A DNA stretch of 64,000 nt from an uncultured Spirochaetales bacterium (GCA_964384485.1 CAYLLE010000005.1:4258-68257), one strand, 5' to 3'. Positions 35,733-44,590 are shown, counted from the first letter of the stretch. Numbers and translations are program-made. Notes: generated by a model from the sequence alone, not told the origin.

Positions 35733-36488
35733 ATGCCCGAGAACTTAAATTGGAAGATCGTTGCAGGCGCCGCGGCTGGTGCTTTTCTCATCGCCTTTAT
35801 AATCGCGGGTGTTGCTGGAGTGGGCTTCGGCAAGATGATCCTGCGCGGTTTTTTAGGCGCTCTAGTGTTCGGGGCTCTCGGGGCGGGATTAAGCATTGTA
35901 ATTGCCCGGTTCCTTCCTGAATTACTGACACCTCAGGAACAGACCTCTGCGGAAGAAGATTTTAAGCCGAAAGAAACCGGCAGAAATGTAGATGTTGTAG
36001 TGGAAAATGATGAAGAAATCGGAGCGGGCGTCTACAATTTAGAAGTTGCAGATGACGAAGAGCTAGAAGAAATTGCAGGTGACTCCACCGGGGATTCCGA
36101 AGAACCCGCAGCTGATTTGGAACCGGCGGAAGATCTTCCGGAGAGCGGGGAAGCTGGTTCCGGTGAAAATGTGAACTTCAATGAAGATACAGATGATTCT
36201 CTGGTTGAAGAGGTAGAAGAACTGTCTCCGGAAGAGGACGATTCAGAAGAATTCCGGGAAAGTATTGCAGCCGAAACAGTCGAGCCGGATGATGATGTTG
36301 AAAATCTGCCGGATGTAGACCGGTTTTCCGGATCTTTTCAGGATACTCTGGAACAGGACGAGGAAAACGAGCAGGAAGAACCGCCCCGGAAGCAGTTTTC
36401 TCCGGAACAGGAAAATCCGTTTCCTGATCAGGATCCGGAAACAATGGCACGGGCTATCCGGACAGCATTAAAGAGAGATTCCGAATGA
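35733..36488 (+). CDS. Hypothetical membrane protein (2 TM, acidic disordered tail, FliF-C-like terminal peptide)
   Basis: Two N-terminal hydrophobic helices, an Asp/Glu-rich tail, C-terminus DPETMARAIRTALKRD; between flhG and fliA. Confidence 0.8.
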   Translation: MPENLNWKIVAGAAAGAFLIAFIIAGVAGVGFGKMILRGFLGALVFGALGAGLSIVIARFLPELLTPQEQTSAEEDFKPKETGRNVDVVVENDEEIGAGVYNLEVADDEELEEIAGDSTGDSEEPAADLEPAEDLPESGEAGSGENVNFNEDTDDSLVEEVEELSPEEDDSEEFRESIAAETVEPDDDVENLPDVDRFSGSFQDTLEQDEENEQEEPPRKQFSPEQENPFPDQDPETMARAIRTALKRDSE

Positions 36489-37362: not shown

Positions 37363-39324
37363 ATGGGGAAAACAGTCAGTTTTAATGAAATCCGGGAATA
37401 CATGGAAACGCAGGCCGAGGAAGACCGGAAGCGCAACTATGTTACCGTTACGGCTGATTCCCTGGATGATGCCCTGAATCAGGCATCCGTTGAGCTTGGT
37501 GTGCCTATAAAAAAAATCGAATACGAAATAATCGAGAAAGGGGCTAAAGGTCTCCTCGGAATGGGGAAGAAAAGTTTTCTCATCATGGCCTACACGGCAC
37601 GGGAAGAAAGCGAGGTATCCGAAGAAGATATCGGTATAGATTTCGGAACTCTGGGCGGAGGTTCTGAGGAAGCGGTAACAGACGGCAAAGCTGCTGTTCG
37701 GTTTTCGACGGATGGTATTCTGCTGAAGGTTACAAAACCCAGCCGCGGCGGAAAAAAGGTTGATGAACGGGACGCTATGGACCGGCTTTTGGAACGGCTG
37801 GGAACGACAGACCCGGTTGACACCTCCCTGGTTTCAAAGACCGTAAAACAAGCTCAGGGTGAGTTTATTAAGGTCGGCGATTTCGAGCATAATCCGGCAA
37901 ATGACGCCATGGTCACGGTGGATATTACCGATATGGAAATGAAAGCCTACCTGAATGCTACCCCTCCGGGAAAAGGCGGAACAGATCCGGAATATGATTA
38001 CATAATCACCTTCCTTCAGAACAATAATGTAGTTGAAGGGATTAAAGAAGATGAAATCCGTTCCTTTATTGAAAATCCCGTATATGGAGAGCCTATTTTG
38101 GCAGCGGAAGGGAAAGCGCCGGAAAACGGAGCTGACGCCCGGGTAGCCTACAACTTTGAAACTGATAAATCGAAAGTTAAGCTCAAAGAAAAAGACGGAA
38201 AGGTAGATTTTAAGGAACTCAATATCATCACTAATGTCGTTGAAGGTCAGGTAGTGGCTCGGAAGATTCCCGCGGAACGGGGAAAAAGCGGCAGAACGGT
38301 AACCGGTAAACTGCTCCCGGCAACAGATGGAAAAGATGTTAATATAAATGCCGGTAAAAATGTTGCAGTATCTGAAGACGGTACGGTTGCAACAGCCGAA
38401 TTGAACGGTCAGGTGGTGATCCAGGCCGGCAAGATAAATGTCGAACCGATATATGTGGTTCAGGGAGATGTGAACCTTAAAACGGGAAATATTCTTTTTC
38501 TGGGAACCGTTATCGTTAAAGGAAATGTGGAGGACGGTTTTTCCGTCAAAGCTTCCGGAAACATTGAAGTAATGGGCAGTGTCGGAAGATGCGAACTCGA
38601 CGCGGAAGGGGACATTGTCGTACATCAGGGGATTGCCGGAAAGAACTCAGGTATTGTACAGGCGGGACAGACTGTCTGGTCTAAGTTCATCGAAAACACC
38701 CGGGTAGAAGCCGGTGAACTGGTGGTTGTTTCGGACGGAATTATAAATTCGGAAGTATTTTCCGATAAAAAAATTATATGCAAAGGGAAACGGGCAAATA
38801 TCGTCGGGGGTAAACTCCGGGCGGCTTCAGAGATCAACGCAAACGCTCTGGGGTCTGTTGCCGGAATGGAGACTATTCTTGAAGTGGGATACGATCCGAA
38901 GATAAAAGAGCAAATGCTTAAGCTGGATACAGAACGGGAAGAATTAACCAAAGAACTTGATGAAATCAATCTGAACTTGTCTACGATTCAGTCGGCGGTA
39001 AAGAAGACCAAAAAGAAGCTGAGTCCGGATAAGAAGGAAGCCCTGGACAGAATGCTGAAACGGGCAAAAGAAATATCGGCCCGTATAAGCGAAATTGACA
39101 CCGACCGGGAAGAAAAAAAGCAGTATCTTTCTCAGCTGCAAATGGACGGCCGTATTTCAGCATCCGGAAAAGTGTATCCGGGTGTAAAAATCAGCATAAA
39201 AGATGCTTTTCTGGAAGTCCGGAACGAGTTCAAATCCGTCACCTTTATTTCCGAAGCGGGTAATGTTAAAATTTCGAAATACATAGAATCGGAGGAAGAT
39301 ACTGATCTGATTCGCAAGGATTGA
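37363..39324 (+). CDS. FapA (DUF342) family protein with N-terminal Jag_N-like domain
   Basis: N-terminal ADSLDDALNQASVELG...EIIEKGAKGLLGMG, then a DUF342 beta-helix (GDVNLKTGNILFLGTVIVKGNV) and GKVYPGV. Confidence 0.85.
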   Translation: MGKTVSFNEIREYMETQAEEDRKRNYVTVTADSLDDALNQASVELGVPIKKIEYEIIEKGAKGLLGMGKKSFLIMAYTAREESEVSEEDIGIDFGTLGGGSEEAVTDGKAAVRFSTDGILLKVTKPSRGGKKVDERDAMDRLLERLGTTDPVDTSLVSKTVKQAQGEFIKVGDFEHNPANDAMVTVDITDMEMKAYLNATPPGKGGTDPEYDYIITFLQNNNVVEGIKEDEIRSFIENPVYGEPILAAEGKAPENGADARVAYNFETDKSKVKLKEKDGKVDFKELNIITNVVEGQVVARKIPAERGKSGRTVTGKLLPATDGKDVNINAGKNVAVSEDGTVATAELNGQVVIQAGKINVEPIYVVQGDVNLKTGNILFLGTVIVKGNVEDGFSVKASGNIEVMGSVGRCELDAEGDIVVHQGIAGKNSGIVQAGQTVWSKFIENTRVEAGELVVVSDGIINSEVFSDKKIICKGKRANIVGGKLRAASEINANALGSVAGMETILEVGYDPKIKEQMLKLDTEREELTKELDEINLNLSTIQSAVKKTKKKLSPDKKEALDRMLKRAKEISARISEIDTDREEKKQYLSQLQMDGRISASGKVYPGVKISIKDAFLEVRNEFKSVTFISEAGNVKISKYIESEEDTDLIRKD

Positions 39325-39326
39325 TC

Positions 39327-39641
39327 ATGGCAATTCAACCAATTGATGTGCAGGTCCTGTTTTCCAGATTGAGCCAGATCGGAAAGGAACAGGCCGCCAG
39401 TAAAGACGCTATTCTCCAAAGCCAGGCCGCAGCGGGTAACGAAATCCTTGAAAAGACCAGGCAGCAGGAAAGATCAGTCCGGGAAACAGACGACATAGAG
39501 GAAGGTCCTGATAAAGCTAACGATGAAGAAGAGAAGAAAAACCAAAAGCGGAACGGCGCCCGCAAGGAGCGGCAGCAGGAAGATGAGCGGCAAGTATTTA
39601 CGGATCCTGATATAGGTACCCAGGTAGATATTTCCGGTTGA
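39327..39641 (+). CDS. Small flagellar-operon hypothetical protein
   Basis: MAIQPIDVQV start, charged middle, C-terminal FTDPDIGTQVDISG; tightly packed in the operon. Confidence 0.75.
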   Translation: MAIQPIDVQVLFSRLSQIGKEQAASKDAILQSQAAAGNEILEKTRQQERSVRETDDIEEGPDKANDEEEKKNQKRNGARKERQQEDERQVFTDPDIGTQVDISG

Positions 39642-39645
39642 TATT

Positions 39646-40140
39646 ATGAATCTTCTAATCACTTTAGCGGTCAATCTACTGCTGATGGCAGTTTTCTTTA
39701 TATTTATCACGAAAAGAATGGAACGGCGGTTCAGTACCGAATTATTTCTGGAGGATGTCCGGAAGGAAGTTGAAGGTATTATTGTCGAATTGAACGGTAC
39801 CACGGACCGGAATATCGCGCTTGTGGAAGACAGGATTCAAACTTTAGGAGAAATCTTGCGGAACGCCGATAAAAAAATAGAGATTCTGAACAGGGAATCG
39901 CGGCGTAAGGTAACCAGCGATTTCCGGTACAACGATATTTTAAAGCGGAATCCTCCTTCCGAACCGCCGTCTTCTCGCGTAAAGAGAGAGGAGAAAGAAG
40001 CACCCGGGGGAGATGAAGACCTCAAGAAGCGGATACGGGAATTATACCGGCAGGGAATTTCCGCCGCCCTTATAGCAAAAAAAACAGGAGTAACCCAGGG
40101 TGAGGTGGATCTTTATATTTCCTTGATAGAAAAAAATTAA
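39646..40140 (+). CDS. SwrB/DUF2802-like membrane protein with C-terminal HTH
   Basis: N-terminal TM helix, coiled coil, HTH-like IRELYRQGISAALIAKKTGVTQGEVDLYI. Confidence 0.7.
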   Translation: MNLLITLAVNLLLMAVFFIFITKRMERRFSTELFLEDVRKEVEGIIVELNGTTDRNIALVEDRIQTLGEILRNADKKIEILNRESRRKVTSDFRYNDILKRNPPSEPPSSRVKREEKEAPGGDEDLKKRIRELYRQGISAALIAKKTGVTQGEVDLYISLIEKN

Positions 40141-40157
40141 CACCGGGTAGAGGGAAG

Positions 40158-41876
40158 ATGAAACAGGTGATAGGCATCGACTTAGGTACGACAAATTCTG
40201 CCATGGCATTTATGGATGGTGATGAACCCAAGCTAATTCCCAATAACCGGGGAAGCCGCATTACCCCGTCGGTCGTAGCCTTTACTCCGGAAGGAGATGT
40301 TCTGGTCGGAGAATCGGCCAAAAACCAGGCGGCTGTAAACGCGGAGGGGACAGTTTCGGCTGTTAAACGAGCCATGGGAACGGACCGTGTTTTTAACGTC
40401 CGGGGAAAAAACTACACCCCCGTCGATATCAGTTCATTTATTTTACAGAAGATGAAATCCGACGCGGAAGCATACCTGGGAGAGCCGATTACTGAGGCGG
40501 TCATTACCGTTCCGGCTTACTTCTCCGAACCTCAGCGCCGCGCAACAGTTGAGGCCGGAAAAAAAGCCGGTCTTGATGTCAGGCGGGTCCTGAATGAGCC
40601 CACCGCGGCAGCTCTGGCATACGCGCACCGCATGACCGAAGAGAAGCGCATCCTGGTGTATGATCTTGGGGGCGGAACCTTCGATGTAACGTGTCTGGCA
40701 AAGGAAGAAAACCGGTTCGTTGTCAAATCAACCGGAGGCGACCCTTTTTTGGGGGGACTGGATTTTGACAGACTCCTCCTTAAACGGGTTCTCGAATCGT
40801 TCCGGAAACAGACGAATCTTCCCCTTGAAGAAGATCCGGTTATTCTTCAGCAGCTGAATGAACAGGTTGAATCTGCGAAAAAAGAACTTTCTTCCAGGGA
40901 ATCAGCGACCATTTCCCTTCCTTTTATTTCCGGAACGGGGAAACCACTCCATCTCACGTGCTCAGTGTCCCGGCGGGAATTTGATGAGATTATTGATGCT
41001 CTGGTAAAGCGTACGATAAAACGGACCCAGCGGGCTGTAGCCGACGCGGGATTCGGGATCTCCGGCATCGACTTTCTGGTCCTTTCCGGCGGAAGTTCCC
41101 GGATTCCCCTGGTCCGCCGGTATTTAGACAGAATTCTCTCTCCGAAACAGGCAAATCAGGTAAATCCGGATGAAATTGTTGCTATGGGTGCTGCTGTACA
41201 GGCATCGATGCTGAATGGCTCCGATTCATCACTGCATGAAGAAATAATCCTTAAAGAAATAACATCGTATCACCTGGGAGTCGAAATTGAAGGCGACACC
41301 TTTGTCCCCATAATACCTAAAAATAGTTCTATTCCCGCGAGGGCGGAGAAAATATTTACAACGGTTGAAGATAATCAATCCTCCGTTGAAATCCATGTGA
41401 TGCAGGGACAAAGTGAAATTGCTTCTAACAATAGATCACTCGGAAGATTTCTGCTTTCCGGTATCCGGGAAGGCCGAAAGGGACAGCCCCGTATTTCTGT
41501 TGCTTTTTCCATTGATGCGGACGGGTTGGCCGATGTCGGAGCCTTCGACCTCGATACAGGAGTTCAGCAGCGGATAAGCATTACACCCCTTCTGGCAAGA
41601 GGAGAAAACATCGCGGAAGATAAACCCCGCGATGAAAACGGCAGATTAAGAGCGGCATTTCTACGGGACCGTCTTTTCCGGCTGAAGGAGACGGGTAAAC
41701 AGGAACTGGGTCCTGATTTTTGTGATGAAATTTCCGAGCTTTTAATGTTAACCGATACCGCAATCGGCGAAAATGATGTAAAATCCATGAAAGAGTGTCA
41801 GCTGGCCATGGAAACTCTTATCGGAGAAATTGAAGCGGTAATAGGAAAGGAGGAAGCAGAATATGGAGGCGCTTAA
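40158..41876 (+). CDS. Hsp70 family chaperone (atypical DnaK paralogue)
   Basis: GIDLGTTNS, ITVPAYF, NEPTAAALAY, YDLGGGTFDV, LSGGSSRIP; substrate-binding beta domain and a short lid. Confidence 0.95.
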   Translation: MKQVIGIDLGTTNSAMAFMDGDEPKLIPNNRGSRITPSVVAFTPEGDVLVGESAKNQAAVNAEGTVSAVKRAMGTDRVFNVRGKNYTPVDISSFILQKMKSDAEAYLGEPITEAVITVPAYFSEPQRRATVEAGKKAGLDVRRVLNEPTAAALAYAHRMTEEKRILVYDLGGGTFDVTCLAKEENRFVVKSTGGDPFLGGLDFDRLLLKRVLESFRKQTNLPLEEDPVILQQLNEQVESAKKELSSRESATISLPFISGTGKPLHLTCSVSRREFDEIIDALVKRTIKRTQRAVADAGFGISGIDFLVLSGGSSRIPLVRRYLDRILSPKQANQVNPDEIVAMGAAVQASMLNGSDSSLHEEIILKEITSYHLGVEIEGDTFVPIIPKNSSIPARAEKIFTTVEDNQSSVEIHVMQGQSEIASNNRSLGRFLLSGIREGRKGQPRISVAFSIDADGLADVGAFDLDTGVQQRISITPLLARGENIAEDKPRDENGRLRAAFLRDRLFRLKETGKQELGPDFCDEISELLMLTDTAIGENDVKSMKECQLAMETLIGEIEAVIGKEEAEYGGA

Positions 41877-42528
41877 TCAGGCCCAGGAACACCGCTGCCT
41901 CAAGCTCCTCGGCCTTTCCGGTAACGCCAGCACGGAAGACATAAAACGCGCCTTCCGTATGCTGGCAAAAAAAATGCATCCCGATGCGAATCCGGCGGGG
42001 GGGAACCCTTCGAAGTTCGCGGAAATCAGGAACGCGTATGATTATCTGACCCGAAACCGGAAACAGACAATCACCTTTCCCCGGGAAAGAAGCACCTCCG
42101 GCCGGAGTTACCGGCCGAACAAAAAAGAACCCGGTATCTTTTCCTGGGGCGAAGATCTGTTGACTTCCGCGGTTCCTTCCGTCCGTATTTTTGCCGCCAG
42201 GGCCCTTGGGAACAGCGGAAAAAGAGCGGCTTACACCTTTTTGCGGAAGGCTCTCTATGACACGGATGAATTAGTAGTGCAGGAAGCGGTTAAAAGCATC
42301 GGTCAGCTCGAAATCACGCAGTCTGCCGGTGAATTGGCGTCGCTCTACAATCGCTCCGATCGGGAGATGAAATTACATATCCTGTCTGCGGTTGAAAAAA
42401 TGGGTCATCTGAAAAATTTTCAGAATCTAATTTTGACCGGCATAAAAGATATTGATCCGGATGTCAGAAGAAAGTTTATGAAACTTTTCTTCCGGTACCG
42501 GAGCGAAACTGGAGAAACAAGAAACTGA
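41863..42528 (+). CDS. J-domain protein with HEAT repeats
   Basis: N-terminal J domain with intact HPD (AKKMHPDAN) and HEAT-like repeats (VRIFAARALG, VVQEAVKSIG); no zinc finger or G/F region. Confidence 0.88.
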   Translation: MEALNQAQEHRCLKLLGLSGNASTEDIKRAFRMLAKKMHPDANPAGGNPSKFAEIRNAYDYLTRNRKQTITFPRERSTSGRSYRPNKKEPGIFSWGEDLLTSAVPSVRIFAARALGNSGKRAAYTFLRKALYDTDELVVQEAVKSIGQLEITQSAGELASLYNRSDREMKLHILSAVEKMGHLKNFQNLILTGIKDIDPDVRRKFMKLFFRYRSETGETRN

Positions 42529-44264
42529 TGGATCAGCAGAACACGGGCCGGGATCATCAAAGTCTCTGGCAGATATTTATACGGGATTCCCGGAACTTTA
42601 TGGAAACTCTTGACACCTCGGTCCCGGAGCTATCAGCATCGAATGAACAGCAGCCGGACATTATTTCGCGGATTTTCCGGGCTCTCCATTCACTTAAATC
42701 GGAAGCCGATTTTTTGGAAATAGACGATGTCGCGGCTGCCGCGGATTCGGTGGAGGACGCGCTGAGTGAACTGAAGTCCGGTGGAGATCCGTCGGAAGTT
42801 GAAAGGCGATATGCCGGTTTGCGTGATATCCTTAATAAAAAGCTGAAAAAGCGGGGAATAGGGTTCCGGTCCCTAACCAAGCTCGAGTCGGAACGGACGG
42901 AAGAGGCTCTGGAACGGAAGGAACAGCTCTATACTGTCCGGTACACAGCCGCGGAAGATGAAGAAGTCCCGTCCGCCAGGCTGTACCTGGCCCTGGACCG
43001 GCTGGAACGTATCAGGAATGTTATTGCCGTCGAACCGGCAGCGGAGAAACTCGAGGAAGCAAATCTCAGGTCCATTACAATTCTTTTTTCACAGGGCGGA
43101 AAGATTCCGAACGATGACGAAATGCCCCAGGTCGACCGGCTGGATATGGCAGGACCCCTTTTTTACGATCCCCATGCCCCTTCGGACCAGTACCAGGGAG
43201 TGGAAGGAGATAATCCGGATGACACGGTACAGACAGCTCCCATCCCCATTGAGGGAGGAAGACGGGGGTATCTCGCGGAAGATTTTCAGAAGACCCTTTT
43301 TCTAACGGCATCATTAATACAGAAAACTACGTTTCTTGAAGGAACAATCAGGGAAAGAACGGTAAGGAATATTTTCGGTCTGGATACTCATCTCTGCGGC
43401 AGGGAAAAGATCCAGCTTCAGCCGGTATTTGATGAACTTTTAGACCGTGGAAAGAGGATGGCAGCGGAAGCGGGAAAAAATATCAGATTTACCTTTTCCG
43501 GCAAATCCGTTGCTGTTTTTCCGCCGATTGCCGAACTGTTGACCGAAATCATCATTCATCTTCTTAAAAACTGCATCGTACACGGTATTGAATCACCGGA
43601 AAATCGGAAAGAGCTGAACAAAAATCCGGAAGGCTCTGTTGAAATCGGTATCATAAGAAAAAACGGGATAGATACTATCAGCGTAAAAGACGACGGCAGA
43701 GGTATATCCGAAAAAGAGGTAAGGGAAGCCTCGGGCAACCGGGATTCACCGGTCCTGGACATAATTGCCGCGCCCGGTTTTACCACCAGACCGAAGACCG
43801 AGCGGAATTCGGGCCGGGGAGTTGGTCTCGATACGGTCCGCCATACCGTCGAGCGGCTTATGGGCGGGAAACTCGTCATGAGAACCGAACCGGGCCGAGG
43901 CACGGGATTTTTTATTTCAATCCCTGCCGATCTCCGTCCGGTCCGGTTCATCGTCTGCCGGAACGGGAATGCGTTTCTGGCGGTGCCGGCTTTCGGAATA
44001 AAGAAGTCGGAACTAACTGATCACAGCCGGGCTAAAGAATATGCCGTGGAGAACCGCTTGCGGGTTTCCGGCAGCGAATCTAAAGGCTCTGAAGGGAAGG
44101 TCCTCATGATTCATTATGCCGACGGGGCATCCGAATTCCTGCTTCTGTCGGACTCACTTGTTTCCGAGGAAGTCTCAATCATCTCTCCTCTCCGGAAGAC
44201 TAAAGTATACTCCCAGACTGCACGAAAACCGGCACTGATAGTACCGCCGTTAAAGGGAATTTGA
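42528..44264 (+). CDS. CheA-like histidine kinase (Hpt-P2-HATPase, degenerate P3 and P5)
   Basis: Hpt FRALHSLK, P2-like segment, N box HLLKNCIVHGIE, G1 DDGRGI, F box APGFTT, G2 SGRGVGLD. Confidence 0.85.
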   Translation: MDQQNTGRDHQSLWQIFIRDSRNFMETLDTSVPELSASNEQQPDIISRIFRALHSLKSEADFLEIDDVAAAADSVEDALSELKSGGDPSEVERRYAGLRDILNKKLKKRGIGFRSLTKLESERTEEALERKEQLYTVRYTAAEDEEVPSARLYLALDRLERIRNVIAVEPAAEKLEEANLRSITILFSQGGKIPNDDEMPQVDRLDMAGPLFYDPHAPSDQYQGVEGDNPDDTVQTAPIPIEGGRRGYLAEDFQKTLFLTASLIQKTTFLEGTIRERTVRNIFGLDTHLCGREKIQLQPVFDELLDRGKRMAAEAGKNIRFTFSGKSVAVFPPIAELLTEIIIHLLKNCIVHGIESPENRKELNKNPEGSVEIGIIRKNGIDTISVKDDGRGISEKEVREASGNRDSPVLDIIAAPGFTTRPKTERNSGRGVGLDTVRHTVERLMGGKLVMRTEPGRGTGFFISIPADLRPVRFIVCRNGNAFLAVPAFGIKKSELTDHSRAKEYAVENRLRVSGSESKGSEGKVLMIHYADGASEFLLLSDSLVSEEVSIISPLRKTKVYSQTARKPALIVPPLKGI

Positions 44265-44311
44265 TCTTCCAAATATACAGACAAAATACAGATAAAATAC
44301 CCGCGTAGTGC

Positions 44312-44340
44312 TTGACCAACATGGAAGACCTATGTATAGT
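44312..44340 (+). promoter_or_regulatory. Candidate sigma70 promoter of the betaine ABC importer
   Basis: TTGACC-N17-TATAGT, 250 bp upstream of the proV ATG. Confidence 0.6.
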
Positions 44341-44590
44341 ATACATACCGTTATGTTTGACAGAAGGTATATCTTTAAAAGCATTTATAGAATTCCGCCC
44401 GATTTCCCAGACTGACTTAAATATAATTTAACTTTCAACCGAGGGCTCTTAAATTTCATTGTTGGTTTCGAGCCTTACAAGCGGGTAGTTTTACGGATCT
44501 TGATTGATTTATAAAACAAAAGGGCAAAGTAGGTTTGCTTATGTACTTTAGTCCTTTCATGGCGGAAATTATCTTTAATAAGGTAAAAAG

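Follow-up and report, generated by a model that had tools for sequence, protein, structure and literature searches.

Bacterial Hsp70 chaperones are usually described as three types, DnaK, HscA, and HscC (PMC8215388). In Borrelia burgdorferi the flgB superoperon extends from bb0294 to bb0264, its last gene, and bb0268 is co-transcribed with bb0272-bb0264; a FlgV / sigma-28 / FapA / YjfB / TM+HTH sub-module has also been described (PMC11607428). Borrelia mutants with transposon insertions in DnaK-1 are viable, DnaK-1 is among the candidate virulence determinants, and its disruption has been linked to reduced infectivity (PMC3485029). Here we analyze a 64,000-nucleotide (nt) stretch of DNA from an uncultured Spirochaetales bacterium (GCA_964384485.1, CAYLLE010000005.1:4258-68257), referred to as the window. 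A flagellar operon in the window ends with genes for an Hsp70, a protein that joins a J domain to HEAT repeats (J-HEAT), and a CheA-type kinase. Hsp70 and J-HEAT are co-inherited as a pair, in a fixed position at the 3' end of the flagellar superoperon. The kinase, a tail gene too, is independent of them and more widespread, and the pair sits between it and an upstream gene of the DUF6115 family. The three open reading frames (ORFs), with lengths in amino acids (aa), are:

40158-41876, + strand: Hsp70 ORF, 572 aa
41863-42528, + strand: J-HEAT ORF, 221 aa
42528-44264, + strand: CheA-type kinase ORF, 578 aa

Within the same class, 87 of 401 sampled genomes, representing 44 of 156 genera, match a J-HEAT profile. 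FapA, used as a proxy for the flagellar operon, has an orthologue in 310 of the 401. We compared the neighborhoods of all 86 other J-HEAT genes with those of 60 flagellated genomes without J-HEAT (a sample, not a census), mapping the window proteins onto them. Every J-HEAT gene with enough upstream contig follows the series flhF-flhG-g35733-fliA-fapA-g39321-DUF6115, and the position directly after DUF6115 is kept in every examined locus; these loci span more than 25 families and extend to other classes of the phylum. Among J-HEAT loci, 65 have a full Hsp70, J-HEAT, and the kinase; 8 have an Hsp70 reduced to its substrate-binding domain (SBD), with J-HEAT and the kinase; 7 have the pair without the kinase; and 5 have J-HEAT and the kinase without a visible Hsp70 (a genuine absence in two; the other three are at contig ends). 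Of 85 judgeable loci, 78 have the kinase after J-HEAT. Among the 56 J-less genomes sampled, where the pair is missing, the kinase still closes the operon in 34: it comes directly after DUF6115 in 33, an Hsp70 followed by the kinase occurs in 1, and the other 22 have no kinase (one has Hsp70 alone). The genes are closely packed throughout. In 76 of 79 loci J-HEAT begins within the Hsp70 gene or directly at its stop; gene starts were set by the longest ORF, which inflates some overlaps. No more than 20 nt separate DUF6115 from Hsp70 in 69 of 73 loci and J-HEAT from the kinase in 67 of 76.

Outside this class, the J-HEAT profile picks out seven genomes of the phylum, and in six of them an Hsp70 adjoins the match. 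DUF6115 lies upstream in two of these seven loci (one also has g39321 and FapA), and a CheA-type gene lies downstream in three. A search of representative proteins with J-HEAT returned 341 at E-values up to 1e-30, many of them giant HEAT proteins; among the best 150, J-HEAT proteins of 190-340 aa account for about 85. Few relatives came from word-based protein searches, and a profile scan of genome contigs gave mostly generic J-domain matches and 5 true orthologues. A named cultured carrier of the trio is Spirochaeta africana DSM 8902, whose J-HEAT is WP_014456107.1.

The 56 operon-tail Hsp70s form one clade (Shimodaira-Hasegawa-like approximate likelihood ratio test, SH-aLRT, 95; stem length 0.44). 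The clade excludes the spirochaete DnaKs and 30 DnaKs of other phyla; the flanks of the contig scan provided 50 of the DnaKs in the tree. The HscA and HscC of Escherichia coli also fall outside it, both on long, unresolved branches. Branches within the operon-tail clade are several-fold longer than those of DnaK. One member comes from a genome (locus L212) that we call Borrelia-like because of its 1.2-Mb size, its lack of fliA, and its tree position; its Hsp70 gene lies directly after DUF6115, and no kinase follows it.

A FapA tree of 137 loci served as a proxy phylogeny and offered 13 well-supported independent contrasts in the presence of J-HEAT. Hsp70 changes with J-HEAT in about 12.3 of the 13 and in the opposite direction in 0.1 (median p 0.0005). 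The kinase differs in about 2.4 of the 13, with no direction (p ~1). On the kinase tree, pair-bearing and pair-less genomes interleave within families (such as f24, f4, and f35), with 18 changes of state. The initial annotation of this DNA had taken the three genes as one system and proposed a survey of them across Spirochaetota; in the survey Hsp70 and J-HEAT come and go together at the tail of the flagellar operon, and the kinase does not track the pair. The contrasts and the interleaved kinase tree thus point to two separate add-ons, not one system. We think it probable, with some reserve, that the trio is made up of two separate accessories of the flagellar superoperon, a specialized chaperone pair and a CheA-class kinase.

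The flagellar-operon Hsp70 is the third, divergent Hsp70 paralogue of its genome. It matches Pfam HSP70 (PF00012) over profile positions 1-498 of 599 with an E-value of 3e-157. Alignment to E. coli DnaK and to solved DnaKs recovers its motifs IDLGTTNS, the K in VKRAMG, NEPTAAALAY, DLGGGTFD, and GGSSRIP. It thus has the phosphate-1, phosphate-2, and adenosine motifs and the catalytic K, E, and D of a superfamily nucleotide-binding domain (NBD). The NBD spans about residues 1-355, followed by a linker (EEIILKE), the beta part of the SBD (SBD-beta, about residues 370-480), and a helical lid (residues 481-572). NBD and SBD-beta can be aligned to solved DnaKs over residues 1-480, and the arginine that contacts the J domain (the R167 equivalent) is present. 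The lid is short and divergent, has no Pfam HSP70 profile coverage past position 498, ends in a family-specific ALETLIGEI-type motif, and has no acidic C-terminal tail. Also lacking is an NBD segment of about 24 aa that is carried by E. coli DnaK and by both DnaKs of the same genome.

These two DnaKs were found in the assembly (236 contigs, 88.7% complete) and score 924 and 906 bits against PF00012, compared with 516 for the flagellar-operon Hsp70. One lies in a grpE-dnaK-dnaJ operon (contig C24:24441-26393), and the other is solitary (C116:9260-11167) and 76% identical to the first. Their presence disposes of the possibility that the flagellar-operon gene is the only dnaK of the genome. The protein scores below the NCBIfam cut-offs for DnaK (PRK00290 and TIGR02350; 574 bits against 648 and 556 against 822) and for HscA (434 bits against 620 and 709), and it has no isc context. 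We reject a housekeeping DnaK identity on the basis of these scores, the separate clade, the grpE-dnaK-dnaJ operon on C24, and the missing NBD insert; the earlier view that this Hsp70 is not the housekeeping DnaK therefore holds. Neither NCBIfam scores nor the tree support membership of an HscC-like group.

J-HEAT matches Pfam DnaJ (PF00226; E-value 2e-13, 50.5 bits against a cut-off of 27.8) and HEAT_2 (PF13646; E-value 1e-9, 38.7 bits against 27.7), which places it among proteins with both a J domain and HEAT repeats. The HPD motif at residues 39-41 (41977-41985) is invariant in 13 orthologues; the alignments confirm the first reading of HPD and the main Hsp70 ATPase motifs as intact. In the AlphaFold2 model (mean predicted local distance difference test score, pLDDT, 88) the J domain spans residues 2-68, with HPD in the loop between helices 24-38 and 49-68. 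A disordered linker (residues 69-85) leads to a predicted solenoid of four HEAT repeats (residues 92-216, 42136-42510) with pLDDT above 95, for which the best Foldseek matches are alphaRep/HEAT-like repeat binders. Against the class A/B DnaJ model (TIGR02349) the J domain alone matches, at 47.6 bits against 377. Pfam and NCBIfam searches of J-HEAT found no DnaJ-type G/F, zinc-finger, or C-terminal domains.

Reduced and divergent forms of the pair occur in several lineages. Hsp70 genes of about 200 aa, with SBD-beta and the family lid and no ATPase domain, are present in at least six families (L032:1364-1975, L037:2366-3031, L157, L158, L163, and L180-L184), where they take up all of the DNA between DUF6115 and J-HEAT. 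The partner of these short genes has mostly retained HPD; in an f40 genus (L180-L184) it is also without a J domain, leaving SBD and HEAT. Such forms argue for a function that belongs to the SBD half and the HEAT domain themselves. In a genus of f10 (L138, L141, L144) the Hsp70s are 23-26% identical to the window protein or shortened at the N terminus, and the L138 Hsp70 has an end branch of 3.8. The divergence of the f10 proteins suggests relaxed constraint.

The operon-tail kinase is predicted to have the domain order of CheA. Its AlphaFold2 model (mean pLDDT 79) shows all five domains:

Residues 8-109: P1/Hpt domain, with the phospho-acceptor His54 (42687-42689)
Residues 118-212: P2 domain, with a disordered linker after it
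Residues 248-293: P3 domain, a helical hairpin in the AlphaFold2 model
Residues 297-466: P4 ATP-binding domain, with N, G1, F, and G2 boxes
Residues 470-571: P5 domain, short, beta-rich, and P5-sized (pLDDT 61-84)

Pfam recognizes Hpt (34.9 bits against 24.6), P2 (24.3 bits against 23), and HATPase_c, with no match of the window kinase to the H-kinase_dim (PF02895) or CheW models. The P4 boxes HLLKNCIVHGIE, DDGRGI, PGFTT, and GRGVGLD align to P4 of Thermotoga maritima CheA (E-value 4e-22) and to E. coli CheA. The top Foldseek matches are the CheA P3-P4-P5 structures 6s1k, 8c5v, 3ja6, and 1b3q, aligned over about 380 columns, with template modeling (TM) scores of up to 0.86 to P4 structures. 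Among 30 orthologues HATPase_c is found in 30, Hpt in 28, P2 in 27 (best E-value 5e-13), CheW in 6, and H-kinase_dim in 1, and the His54 motif R..HS[LI]KSEA is nearly invariant. The protein therefore shares P1, P2, and P4 with CheA and falls short of it on P5 and on the curated family scores. Going by the model, P3 and P5 appear to keep the fold and to have lost the family sequence signatures.

Four canonical CheA paralogues are encoded elsewhere in the genome, and the window kinase is 100-200 aa shorter. In lineages f58, f40, and f29 (L241, L244, L246, L257, L259, L260, L263) the operon ends with DUF6115, cheW (about 150 aa), and a canonical-type cheA of 675-686 aa, which groups with the canonical CheAs of this genome with 100% support. 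The branch of the short kinase is long and fast-evolving. Given the tails with cheW and a canonical cheA, the short kinase seems to derive, by fast evolution, from an operon-tail che kinase, and it probably descends from the cheW-cheA pair that some lineages still keep. No conserved co-directional gene (cheY or cheW) follows the kinase, and in 46 loci the next gene is convergent. In these 46 related loci a conserved convergent gene of about 610 aa lies directly after the kinase (its product starts MNLFDKNRAYLEKLFPRL in L149), followed in 37 of them by a second convergent gene of about 620 aa; the window has proVWX downstream instead.

The surroundings of the trio are flagellar on one side only. 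Same-strand genes upstream encode FliF, FliG, FliI, FlgE, MotA, FliM, FlhB, FlhA, FlhF, and FlhG, and FlhG is followed on the same strand by g35733, FliA, FapA, g39321, and DUF6115. Downstream of the kinase, beyond a 326-nt gap, are the transporter genes proV and proW (identified by family matches), which are unrelated to flagella. The features that border the trio are:

39646-40140, + strand: DUF6115 gene (Pfam DUF6115, E-value 6.5e-7), the final member of the flgV-fliA-fapA-yjfB-DUF6115 sub-module
40141-40157, + strand: DUF6115/Hsp70 spacer, 17 nt, with a Shine-Dalgarno-like GAGGG
44265-44590: intergenic region 3' of the kinase, 326 nt; a sigma-70-like promoter at 44312-44340 precedes proV/proW

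The last of these is the predicted end of the flagellar transcription unit. The J-HEAT ATG at 41863 lies inside the 3' end of Hsp70 (14-nt overlap), and the junction of J-HEAT with the kinase at 42528 is TGATG, a 1-nt overlap in which the kinase ATG uses the A of the J-HEAT TGA. Consensus scans found no + strand sigma-70-like promoter and no terminator in the DUF6115/Hsp70 spacer. Within the trio a consensus scan found no strong + strand terminator, and four weak sites (5-6-bp stems) lie within ORFs. Neither the window, the vicinity of the canonical dnaK, nor the rest of the assembly contains a CIRCE element (controlling inverted repeat of chaperone expression), so its absence from the window is uninformative. 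On re-examination the coordinates, spacer, and overlaps given in the initial annotation matched exactly, and the scans bore out its report of no visible terminator, promoter, or CIRCE element, with the CIRCE point carrying no information. Its statement that grpE, hrcA, cheW, and cheY are absent holds locally, as none of them lies near the trio.

Three small genes of the upstream series were characterized by position. The 251-aa gene g35733 (35733-36488), between flhG and fliA, has no Pfam or NCBIfam match and occupies the position of FlgV (bb0268). FlgV, described in 2024, has two transmembrane segments, a disordered tail, and a C-terminal peptide that is conserved (PMC11607428). The 106-aa gene g39321 (39321-39641) corresponds by position to the "YjfB" member of the FlgV/sigma-28/FapA sub-module, and the DUF6115 gene to its "TM+HTH" member (PMC11607428). 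Both are kept upstream of Hsp70 in nearly all loci. We also considered an internal sigma-28 promoter in fapA (TAAA-N14-CCGATA, 38744-38767) and rejected it: the match is no better than chance would give, and neither the sister genome nor other loci conserve it.

The translational coupling of Hsp70 and J-HEAT means that both proteins are probably made together. Based on established Hsp70/J-protein biology, we predict that the HEAT solenoid of J-HEAT would bind a particular client, that the HPD-bearing J domain would trigger ATP hydrolysis in the private Hsp70, and that this Hsp70 would clamp the client in SBD-beta under its short, family-specific lid. The most likely client may be a product or partner of the flgV-fliA-fapA-yjfB-DUF6115 sub-module, a proposal made because this sub-module is the invariant upstream neighbor. 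The pair may thus hold or remodel a factor that governs flagellar assembly, number, or placement. The kinase would autophosphorylate His54, and from there the phosphate could go to a CheY-type regulator that docks on the well-conserved P2. More tentatively, and with less than even confidence, we raise the possibility that the pair is an unrecognized, ancient, ATP-driven accessory for the biogenesis or control of the periplasmic flagellum, extending from Borrelia (bb0264) to free-living spirochaetes. Its core would be the SBD-lid and HEAT parts, ATPase-free in some lineages, and the pair would form a fourth functional class of bacterial Hsp70 system beside DnaK, HscA, and HscC.

Several observations weigh against a dedicated flagellar chaperone pair accompanied by a CheA-class kinase. 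The pair is dispensable on evolutionary time scales: J-HEAT requires about 19 state changes on the FapA tree, and about 72% of flagellated genomes of the class lack it. Several of the SBD-only lineages still have an HPD-bearing J-HEAT, and two genomes keep an HPD-bearing J-HEAT without Hsp70. The J domain may also, or instead, use the housekeeping DnaK. The reduced forms therefore temper the claim of a strictly dedicated Hsp70. The Borrelia-like Hsp70 (503 aa) has an NBD and SBD-beta without a lid, and no J-HEAT follows it. In the window protein the linker reads IILKE against VLLLD in DnaK, and the substrate arch E/V against M404/A429; given these changes, normal Hsp70 allostery is an assumption. 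The proposal of a flagellar client draws on gene position and is circumstantial. The kinase scores far under the NCBIfam cut-offs for CheA (123 bits against 950 and 65 against 793).

The initial annotation had proposed one machine, in which the HEAT repeats recruit the adjacent kinase, or a part of the C-ring or export apparatus, and couple chaperone action to a phosphorelay. Two overlaps that couple the three window ORFs translationally are in keeping with this, as is the frequency with which the kinase follows J-HEAT (78 of 85 loci). The proposal is not supported by the wider sample, in which the kinase occurs without the pair in 34 of 56 J-less genomes and the pair without the kinase in at least 7, the independent contrasts give no association with the kinase, and the kinase tree mixes pair-bearing and pair-less genomes through 18 state changes. 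In lineage f47 (L183, L189-L193), moreover, the kinase has no P1 phospho-acceptor His and Hsp70 and J-HEAT are intact. We regard a single chaperone-kinase machine as highly improbable. We give equally little credence to the idea that the pair is a general or stress chaperone kept in reserve, simply carried along on the flagellar transcript and with no flagellum-specific client. The canonical J domain, the use of HEAT repeats as generic binding modules, and the many losses of the pair would all fit such a role. Against it stand the position after DUF6115 in every examined locus, in more than 25 families and in other classes, and the absence from J-HEAT of the G/F, zinc-finger, and C-terminal domains of DnaJ. 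The Hsp70 clade is also old, fast-evolving, and specialized: it has one stem, and its members share an NBD deletion and a lid motif peculiar to the family.

A more specific alternative is that the pair regulates FliA (sigma-28), encoded four genes upstream, and holds or inactivates it as E. coli DnaK/DnaJ do sigma-32. Control of sigma-32 by DnaK is established (PMC8215388), fliA lies in the same sub-module in every J-HEAT locus, and the Borrelia-like genome lacks both fliA and J-HEAT. That genome nevertheless retains the Hsp70, and most fliA-bearing genomes are without the pair, which leaves control of FliA improbable as the explanation. It is also unlikely, if a little less so, that the core function is that of an ATP-independent holdase or adaptor made of the Hsp70 SBD half and HEAT, with the ATPase and J domains as accessories. 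Such a core would account for the SBD-only genes with the family C-terminal motif in at least six families and for the f40 genus that is down to SBD and HEAT. Most loci (65 with the full trio) retain an intact NBD and HPD, however, the Borrelia-like copy has kept the NBD and SBD-beta and not the lid or J-HEAT, and the reduced forms could be decay intermediates. Our preferred reading is still that of two separate accessories, a chaperone pair and a kinase.

The operon-tail clade would add a further specialized type of Hsp70: it has a J-protein to itself, it keeps one position in the flagellar superoperon, and the spirochaete of Lyme disease carries a member. Should the flagellar apparatus prove to be its target, the pair would be a factor for assembly or regulation that is driven by ATP and differs from the chaperones of type III export, and it could provide a lead on how spirochaetes control the number and placement of their flagella. 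The series of reduced forms (full, SBD-only, lidless, and with a HEAT-only partner) offers a natural dissection of the parts that are needed. Splitting the kinase from the pair keeps a false "chaperone-phosphorelay" system out of annotation.

In literature searches we found nothing specific on the J-HEAT partner, on what the pair does, or on the trio, and no function for bb0264. Similarity to known J-proteins and kinases is partial. TopJ of Mycoplasma is the best NCBIfam J-domain match and is likewise a J-protein for a motility apparatus (the terminal, gliding organelle); the likeness does not go beyond the J domain (54 residues, 48 bits against a cut-off of 300), and TopJ is about 810 aa long and has no HEAT repeats. 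We know of no private Hsp70 for TopJ. CheA of E. coli and T. maritima has the same P1-P2-P3-P4-P5 order, phospho-acceptor His, and N, G1, F, and G2 boxes as the operon-tail kinase. The latter is shorter than the canonical CheAs of its own genome and has no adjoining cheW, cheY, or receptor gene. The fla/che operon of Bacillus subtilis, with che genes within a flagellar superoperon, is a precedent for a che kinase in this position.

The statement in the initial annotation that Borrelia has a second dnaK just downstream of its flagellar block proved correct: the L212 ortholog follows DUF6115, and bb0264 ends the flgB superoperon (PMC11607428). In B. burgdorferi, bb0264 (annotated as heat shock protein 70, dnaK-1) has the same place after fapA, a small gene, and DUF6115. 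The Borrelia-like copy differs in its length of 503 aa, in having no helical lid and no J-HEAT or kinase, and in belonging to a genome without fliA. From the genome annotation, we take bb0264 to be the DnaK-1 of the transposon mutants. The HscA/HscB and HscC/DjlC systems of E. coli also place a non-housekeeping Hsp70 beside its own J-protein with no adjoining grpE, and their J-proteins likewise join a J domain to a client- or target-binding domain. They differ from the pair described here in that the partner domain of J-HEAT is HEAT and the context is flagella, not isc. HscA/HscB and HscC/DjlC are the closest mechanistic analogues of the pair, and bb0264 is its closest named relative.

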